A DNA stretch of 64,000 nucleotides from Escherichia coli (lineage in GTDB: Bacteria; Pseudomonadota; Gammaproteobacteria; Enterobacterales; Enterobacteriaceae). Below, piece by piece: positions 63,314 through 63,357 of the stretch. Every line of letters starts with the position of its first letter. The first letter of the stretch is position 1. The notes under the pieces were generated by a model that was given only the letters and a program-made list of their open reading frames with translations, made no database searches and had not been told where the DNA came from. The stretch lies in the NCBI RefSeq assembly GCF_013315695.1, contig NZ_CP054353.1. One strand, given 5' to 3'. Made by a program: the position numbers and the translations under genes.

Positions 63314-63357
63314 TGAAATGAGTGGTGCCGGATGGAGTGATGTCATCCGGCGAGTGA

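Follow-up and report, generated by a model that had tools for sequence, protein, structure and literature searches.

In Escherichia coli K-12, the Hsp70 protein HscC and the tail-anchored J-proteins DjlB and DjlC are encoded in one block with Sel1-repeat and DUF1266 proteins; HscC with DjlB and DjlC has been described as a specialised Hsp70 system of very low abundance with a link to Cd2+ tolerance, and the distribution of HscC as sporadic and suggestive of horizontal transfer (reviewed in PMC8215388). Within this block, ybeT and ybeU-djlC are among the SlyA-induced operons flagged as H-NS regulon members (PMC5797941), and the engineered genome-reduced strain DGF-298 lacks the block altogether (PMC10652928). 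Apart from these papers on regulation by H-NS and SlyA, on HscC and on the DGF-298 deletion, the searchable literature yielded nothing specific, and no earlier description of a polymorphism at the site of the block, between ybeL and rihA. This site resembles the core-gene integration hotspots of the Enterobacteriaceae in its conserved flanks (leuS-ybeL on one side and rihA-gltLKJI on the other), in having empty as well as occupied alleles, and in cargo that varies with the taxon, is of lower GC and is reported to be H-NS-associated. REPs and BIMEs are documented insertion-sequence targets and contribute greatly to intergenic polymorphism (references cited in PMC2817692). Here we describe a 64-kb stretch of E. 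coli DNA (the window) from which the HscC-DjlB/DjlC block is absent, and we put the probability at roughly two in three that its ybeL-rihA interval is an old insertion site in the unoccupied state, with an allele of ancestral type.

The left flank of the site in the window is formed by the conserved core gene leuS (leucine-tRNA ligase; minus strand, 60014-62596), where K-12 LeuS matched by tblastn with 99% identity at 60017-62596 and which is also annotated in the identical locus of E. coli MS 21-1. The mechanical leuS open reading frame is longer (907 aa, 60014-62737); an 860-aa product from 62596 is favoured by K-12 LeuS homology and by the RefSeq annotation, and the part of the frame upstream of 62596 is taken as a non-coding extension. 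The left border gene, ybeL (plus strand, 62831-63313), encodes a 160-aa DUF1451 zinc-ribbon protein (Pfam PF07295, E = 7e-50), is likewise annotated in MS 21-1 and ends with a TAA stop codon at 63311-63313. The right border gene, rihA (pyrimidine ribonucleoside hydrolase; minus strand, 63358-64000), was located by tblastn with K-12 RihA (98% identity at 63361-63999); its stop codon, TTA on the plus strand, occupies 63358-63360, and the window holds its 3' part, the gene running off the window end (the full gene is 936 bp in the MS 21-1 annotation). Read directly from the sequence, the spacer between the two border genes measures exactly 44 bp (63314-63357), and an earlier note was correct in describing these genes as convergent and 44 bp apart, given the stops at 63313 and 63358. 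The window locus is 100% identical to that of MS 21-1, where the RefSeq annotation has the same adjacency of ybeL and rihA within the gene order leuS, ybeL, rihA, gltL, gltK, gltJ, gltI. Mapping of the K-12 proteins placed none of the HscC-island genes (b0644-b0650) anywhere in the 64-kb window, and the contiguity of ybeL and rihA bears out the claim that the ybeQ-hscC block is missing from this genome.

The spacer contains a putatively REP-derived hairpin at 63326-63352. A hairpin written as GCCGGATG-N9-CATCCGGC had been claimed for the spacer, and it is indeed present as a strict palindrome, GCCGGATG-GAGTGATGT-CATCCGGC, at 63327-63351; the pattern has a single match in the window and appeared in 0 of 100 shuffles. 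With wobble pairs allowed, the predicted fold has a 10-bp stem, in which the left arm (63326-63335, TGCCGGATGG) pairs with the right arm (63343-63352, TCATCCGGCG) around a 7-nt loop (63336-63342), at -15.5 kcal/mol; the folding energy of the 61-nt hairpin context alone is unremarkable (z = -1.54). The corresponding hairpins of E. coli CE10, UTI89 and SCPM-O-B-8794 (hereafter SCPM) have an 11-bp stem and -19.5 to -22.1 kcal/mol, and a private C-to-A change at the top of the stem in the window weakens the fold from -19.5 to -15.5 kcal/mol. A search of 62500-64000 against Rfam returned no family at E <= 1. The terminator scan gave no call for a Rho-independent terminator and no T-run follows the stem on either strand, which rules out a canonical intrinsic terminator.

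With regard to REPs, the window hairpin shares with them a GC-rich, imperfectly palindromic stem-loop within the size range of ~20-40 nt and an extragenic position at the 3' ends of genes, here between two convergent ones, with 12 nt between the ybeL stop and the 10-bp stem and 5 nt between the stem and the rihA stop. Both of its arms match the GTAG-distal end of E. coli, Salmonella and Citrobacter REPs (...CGCCATCCGGC(A/G), or TGCCGGATGG when reversed; PMC2817692), the E. coli and Salmonella REPs in Table 1 of that paper ending in ...CGCCATCCGGC(A). This match to the REP consensus covers the outer 9-10 nt of each arm only (TGCCGGATGG / CATCCGGCG against ...CGCCATCCGGCA, PMC2817692 Table 1), and the internal REP body is absent. 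The GT(A/G)G head that characterises REPs (PMC2817692) is absent as well, with neither GTAG nor CTAC in the hairpin flanks within 63314-63357; intact outgroup copies have this head (...CCGGCCTAC / GTAGGCCGG...). The motif TGCCGGATG occurs in three copies in the 64-kb window, no more than expected by chance, and the other two copies have no REP-like palindromic context. Because the GTAG head is missing, the hairpin is not an intact REP; at just 25-27 nt, without head and internal body, it differs from REPs and BIMEs (REPINs) as a remnant that would not be recognisable to a RAYT. On the basis of these matches, we read it as the probable collapsed remnant of an inverted REP pair, made up of the two outer (GTAG-distal) ends. 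REP stem-loops make upstream mRNA more stable against 3' exonucleases; they can also attenuate transcription and, when close to the stop codon of the gene upstream, can reduce its translation. By analogy, the window hairpin would most likely act as a REP-like 3' stem-loop common to both convergent transcripts, protecting or attenuating them.

The state of the site outside E. coli was examined in 80 ybeL loci from species-representative genomes, onto which the K-12 proteins were mapped (E. albertii, E. fergusonii and S. bongori were not in the sample). In every non-Escherichia locus of this set (> 60 outgroup species) the ybeQ-hscC genes are absent, and ybeL abuts rihA, or gltL where rihA is missing, in many species of Citrobacter, in S. 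enterica subsp. arizonae, in Kluyvera, Pseudocitrobacter, Phytobacter, Trabulsiella and Enterobacter, and in others. The presence of rihA is itself variable, with ybeL directly beside gltL in Kosakonia, Siccibacter, Yokenella, Intestinirhabdus and some Citrobacter (loci L016, L017, L021, L025, L036-L039 and others). The orthologous spacers of Citrobacter and S. arizonae hold intact REPs, either one REP or two inverted REPs (e.g., TGCCGGATGGCGACGCAAAGCGTCTTATCCGGCCTAC...GTAGGCCGGATAAGCGTTAGCGCCATCCGGCG), and the window arms also align to an equivalent hairpin, likewise short, in Citrobacter sp. FP75 (GCCGGATGG-TATCG-CCATCCGGC). The left end, TGCCGGATG, lies 5-13 nt past the ybeL stop in the outgroups, in the same orientation as in the window, and forms invariant alignment columns in common with it; in C. 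portucalensis, C. youngae and S. arizonae, as in the window, 4-6 nt separate the right end, CATCCGGCG, from the rihA stop, and the two-REP spacers of these three outgroups have outer ends to which the window arms align. Beyond the REP ends, no sequence is shared between the spacers. The spacers of Enterobacter and Phytobacter (L027, L040, L043, L050, L059, L060) contain palindromic repeats of another family (…CCCTCTCCC…GGGAGAGGG…GGGGTGAGGGCATCAGGC), in some cases as tandem copies; the orthologous spacer is colonised by different short-repeat families in different genera.

Within the genus, an island with K-12-type borders was found in Escherichia sp. E1V33 and in E. whittamii, and "E. coli" SCPM, which is ~4% diverged, has no island and a 39-bp spacer with the same hairpin. 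Escherichia sp. MOD1-EC7003 also carries the island, with an extra 2.5 kb beside ybeL; this insert, between ybeL and ybeQ (L006 10484-12994), encodes a 93-aa J-domain fragment and contains two further open reading frames (344 and 321 aa) without a Pfam match. The ybeL junction has been hit again in this island-bearing lineage.

In K-12 (NC_000913), 7,976 bp separate the stops of ybeL and rihA (4502-12477 in locus extract L001), in agreement with the earlier note, which had placed about 8 kb of Sel1-repeat, DnaJ-like and hscC genes there. The seven genes, b0644-b0650, are ybeQ (Sel1 repeats), ybeR (DUF1266), djlB (J-domain protein), ybeT (Sel1 repeats), ybeU (DUF1266), djlC and hscC (Hsp70). 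Homology between the empty and the K-12 allele ends 0-1 nt after the ybeL stop (query position 484) and resumes 0-7 nt before the rihA stop (query positions 521/524/528). In the island allele, the spacer is replaced over its whole length between the two stops. The sequence immediately inside each K-12 border shows no resemblance to the 44-bp spacer, and neither direct nor inverted repeats are found at the K-12 island ends; the only repetition is an internal paralogy of ybeR-djlB and ybeU-djlC (2,797-bp spacing) and one REP. The question raised beforehand, whether the hairpin is duplicated at the borders, is answered in the negative by K-12, E1V33 and E. whittamii, whose borders are identical, and by Salmonella, none of which has a hairpin, REP or direct repeat at either border. 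The K-12 island annotation includes no integrase or other mobility gene. The site differs in these respects from other core-gene integration hotspots, having no tRNA gene, integrase, attachment-site repeat or mobility gene and a spacer that is replaced with no target duplication; an integrase-mediated mobile genomic island was rejected on the same grounds, including the lack of a spacer copy at the borders. The GC content of the island is 42-50% vs 51-54% in the flanks.

The REP inside the K-12 island is intact and palindromic and lies between the convergent genes djlC and hscC (L001 10685-10716, TGCCGGATGCAGCGTTTACGCCGCATCCGGCA), with stem ends as in the window hairpin; it may be behind the second short match that most genomes gave to the island query. 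We did not adopt the idea that it is the displaced ancestral spacer REP, as the shared part is generic REP consensus only and two separate insertions would be needed. Comparison of the seven island proteins with the PADLOC-DB defence models gave no significant match for six of them and, for YbeQ, one marginal non-domain match (E = 1e-4) in which no stretch passed alone; a known anti-phage defence system was discarded for want of a credible PADLOC match.

Both alleles are common in E. coli. Among 5,426 complete genomes, 5,424 gave a match, and ybeL and rihA are contiguous in 964 of these 5,424; a 76-nt spacer-only query that island-bearing genomes cannot match recovered 889 of the 964. At least 80% of the K-12 island is present in 3,663 of the 5,424 genomes and any island match in 4,449, those below 80% being mostly ~5.2-kb derivatives. 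Genomes with an island match and genomes without one sum to nearly all 5,426, which suggests that empty-site genomes rarely carry the island elsewhere. Empty-site strains include CE10, UTI89, UM146, Nissle 1917, one ST1193 isolate and several avian isolates; we take such strains (UTI89, Nissle 1917, CE10 and others) to belong to phylogroups B2 and F. The shortened islands are of two forms, one with a deletion from within ybeQ through djlB, found in JJ1886 (presumably ST131) and isolate 30859_5#62, and one in which the two DUF1266-Djl modules are fused, found in NCTC10537. In O157:H7 NE122, the annotation gives both ybeQ and djlC as pseudogenes interrupted by internal stops (L086 5070-6047 and 9713-11164). 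Given these pseudogenes and the two different ~5.2-kb deletion forms, the island is decaying in several lineages. Public assemblies that encode an identical YbeL show the same three contexts (empty, full and short) and no other cargo.

Additional variation was observed around the site. In NCTC10537, IS150 interrupts gltL (L087 11232-13403). A gene for a 625-aa rhomboid-family protease lies between gltI and lnt in UTI89, the ST131-type locus and several other loci (L084 9785-10076, L085 14894-15169, L093 15253-17130) and is absent from CE10 (L083), O157 (L086) and L095; ~5 kb past the end of the window, it constitutes a second presence/absence polymorphism.

Salmonella enterica subsp. enterica has an island at the same site. 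HscC homologues with 83% identity are widespread in this subspecies, and 8,519 bp lie between the ybeL and rihA stops (in L088, between 8656 and 17174), with the order ybeL, ybeQ-like, DUF1266, djlB-like, DUF1266, djlC-like, hscC, an extra 412-aa gene and rihA. The extra gene (L088 8687-9925, between rihA and hscC) has no Pfam match and no E. coli counterpart. The borders of the Salmonella island are unrelated to those in E. coli and have no REPs. Identities between K-12 and Salmonella are 50% for YbeQ, 63% for YbeR, 46% for DjlB, 60% for YbeU, 54% for DjlC and 83% for HscC, vs 91-95% for the flanking core proteins YbeL, RihA and GltL; within Escherichia, YbeQ drops to 82% identity. For a "chaperone" module, evolution at this pace is unusually fast. 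Either the island is older than the Escherichia-Salmonella split and fast-evolving, or different versions were acquired by the two genera. The island may be as old as this split, with the empty states of Escherichia derived. The very divergent island in synteny in Salmonella shows that the polymorphism is ancient.

Different cargo occupies the site in other genera. Citrobacter sp. MGH106 and Cu233 have a chaperone-usher fimbrial operon between ybeL and rihA, Leclercia, Klebsiella oxytoca, K. grimontii and Silvania have TpsA/TpsB two-partner secretion genes, Enterobacter quasihormaechei has Hcp and an unknown ORF (GC 0.36), and Superficieibacter has unknown ORFs. A hotspot is a core interval that holds different or no cargo across genomes, and the interval between ybeL and rihA is one. 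The proposal that the spacer marks the insertion point of a variable region is confirmed by the fimbrial, two-partner-secretion and Hcp cargo in other genera together with the divergent HscC island of S. enterica. By analogy with the known role of REPs as insertion targets, the REP nature of the spacer would be a plausible reason for the reuse of the site.

The relationships among alleles were explored in flank trees (leuS-ybeL and rihA-gltL), in which the empty genomes do not group together. MS 21-1 is placed with CE10 on the left-flank tree and shares an E. coli sub-cluster with it on the right-flank tree, UTI89 (empty) pairs with an ST131-type short-island locus, and SCPM falls between island-bearing cryptic clades. 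The spacer is the same in all empty alleles: those within E. coli (MS 21-1/CE10 and UTI89) differ by 1-2 substitutions, and those of SCPM and CREC_5 have a few substitutions and a 5-bp indel; spacer divergence tracks flank divergence, and the changes keep the stem (T/C opposite G; G·T vs A-T). In 500 nt of each flank, no SNP is fully linked to the empty or island state across the full set, and within E. coli proper the only linked position is a C/T site 10 nt before the junction. Up to the junction, the flanks of UTI89 are almost the same as those of the ST131-type locus, with 0-2 differences per 200 nt, and sliding-window divergence between these two revealed no clear import tract. Near-identical flanks and the absence of linked SNPs fit frequent homologous recombination around an old polymorphism. 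That the empty allele is a single old allele is supported by the consideration that independent deletions could not regenerate one shared REP-bearing spacer. The earlier alternative of an island either never acquired or cleanly lost can be narrowed accordingly: the part that stands is an ancestral-type allele, with a REP spacer positioned as in the outgroups and shared by non-sister empty lineages, and the scar of a fresh deletion is disfavoured.

We suggest that REP palindromes, one or two in number (a BIME/REPIN-like inverted pair), were present in the ancestral spacer, that in Escherichia empty alleles the REP pair would have collapsed to a 25-27-nt hairpin of its two outer ends, and that in the alternative allele a horizontally acquired block of HscC, DjlB, DjlC, Sel1-repeat and DUF1266 genes would have taken the place of nearly all of the spacer, starting 0-1 nt past the ybeL stop and ending ~4-8 nt short of the rihA stop. 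The two alleles would have coexisted for long in Escherichia, with homologous recombination in the flanking core genes moving them between lineages, and such movement would account for an empty state that is not monophyletic. The same exchange leads to a related possibility that we consider unlikely on balance, though worth serious attention, namely that the lineage of the window once held the island and lost it cleanly to an empty allele brought in from a different Escherichia lineage by homologous recombination in ybeL/leuS and rihA/glt, in which case the spacer would be ancestral in sequence and not by direct descent in this lineage. The interleaving of empty and occupied states on the flank trees, with UTI89 as sister to the ST131-type locus, the position of island-bearing cryptic clades outside E. 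coli and the lack of flank SNPs fully linked to state across the full set are all consistent with such an import; however, no import tract is visible in the window flanks, MS 21-1 is placed with CE10, and island gain by recombination in other lineages fits the same data equally well.

A de novo clean deletion, in which an island ancestral to Escherichia (and Salmonella) was lost by illegitimate recombination and a REP colonised the junction later, appears improbable. The old syntenic island in S. enterica and the decay of the E. coli island through pseudogenes and internal deletions point in its direction, and this decay makes loss plausible in principle; moreover, REPs are mobile and accumulate between convergent genes (PMC2817692), favouring short convergent spacers, so that the positional match to the outgroup REPs could be convergent. 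Yet deletion would have needed endpoints a few nt from both stops, followed by REP insertion at the offsets and in the orientation seen in Citrobacter and S. arizonae, and it must also be reconciled with a single spacer sequence in non-sister empty lineages (one of them 4% diverged), with > 60 outgroup species that have no island and with a spacer in which no island-border sequence is left. The chance that the island is really present and was collapsed or missed in assembly, or in the choice of window, is negligible; nothing was found in favour of such an artefact, and it is refuted by the recurrence of the junction in 964 complete genomes, among them those of UTI89, CE10 and Nissle 1917 and the finished chromosome of MS 21-1, as well as in public assemblies made independently. 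As a more speculative thought, to which we give little credence, the empty and occupied alleles might be a very old polymorphism, spread over Escherichia lineages and perhaps extending to Salmonella, kept by selection and not by drift. The HscC module, in which the Sel1, DUF1266 and J-domain proteins evolve far faster than the core (46-63% vs 91-95% identity between E. coli and Salmonella), would then be conflict-driven (e.g., a membrane-associated chaperone-based defence or host-interaction module), and the REP pair would serve as the point of breakage or recombination through which the site can be used again in many genera.

Under the preferred reading of an unoccupied, ancestral-type allele, what is seen in the window is an ordinary presence/absence polymorphism at a REP-marked hotspot. 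It illustrates cleanly that, in several genera, insertion has recurred at a REP/BIME-bearing spacer between convergent genes, and it flags the accessory proteins of the island as unusually fast-evolving. For the biology of E. coli, it means that ~18% of finished genomes, including those of UTI89, Nissle 1917 and CE10, are naturally without the HscC/DjlB/DjlC Hsp70 system, which is relevant when K-12 chaperone biology, or the reported Cd2+-sensitivity phenotype, is extended to strains in which the site is empty.
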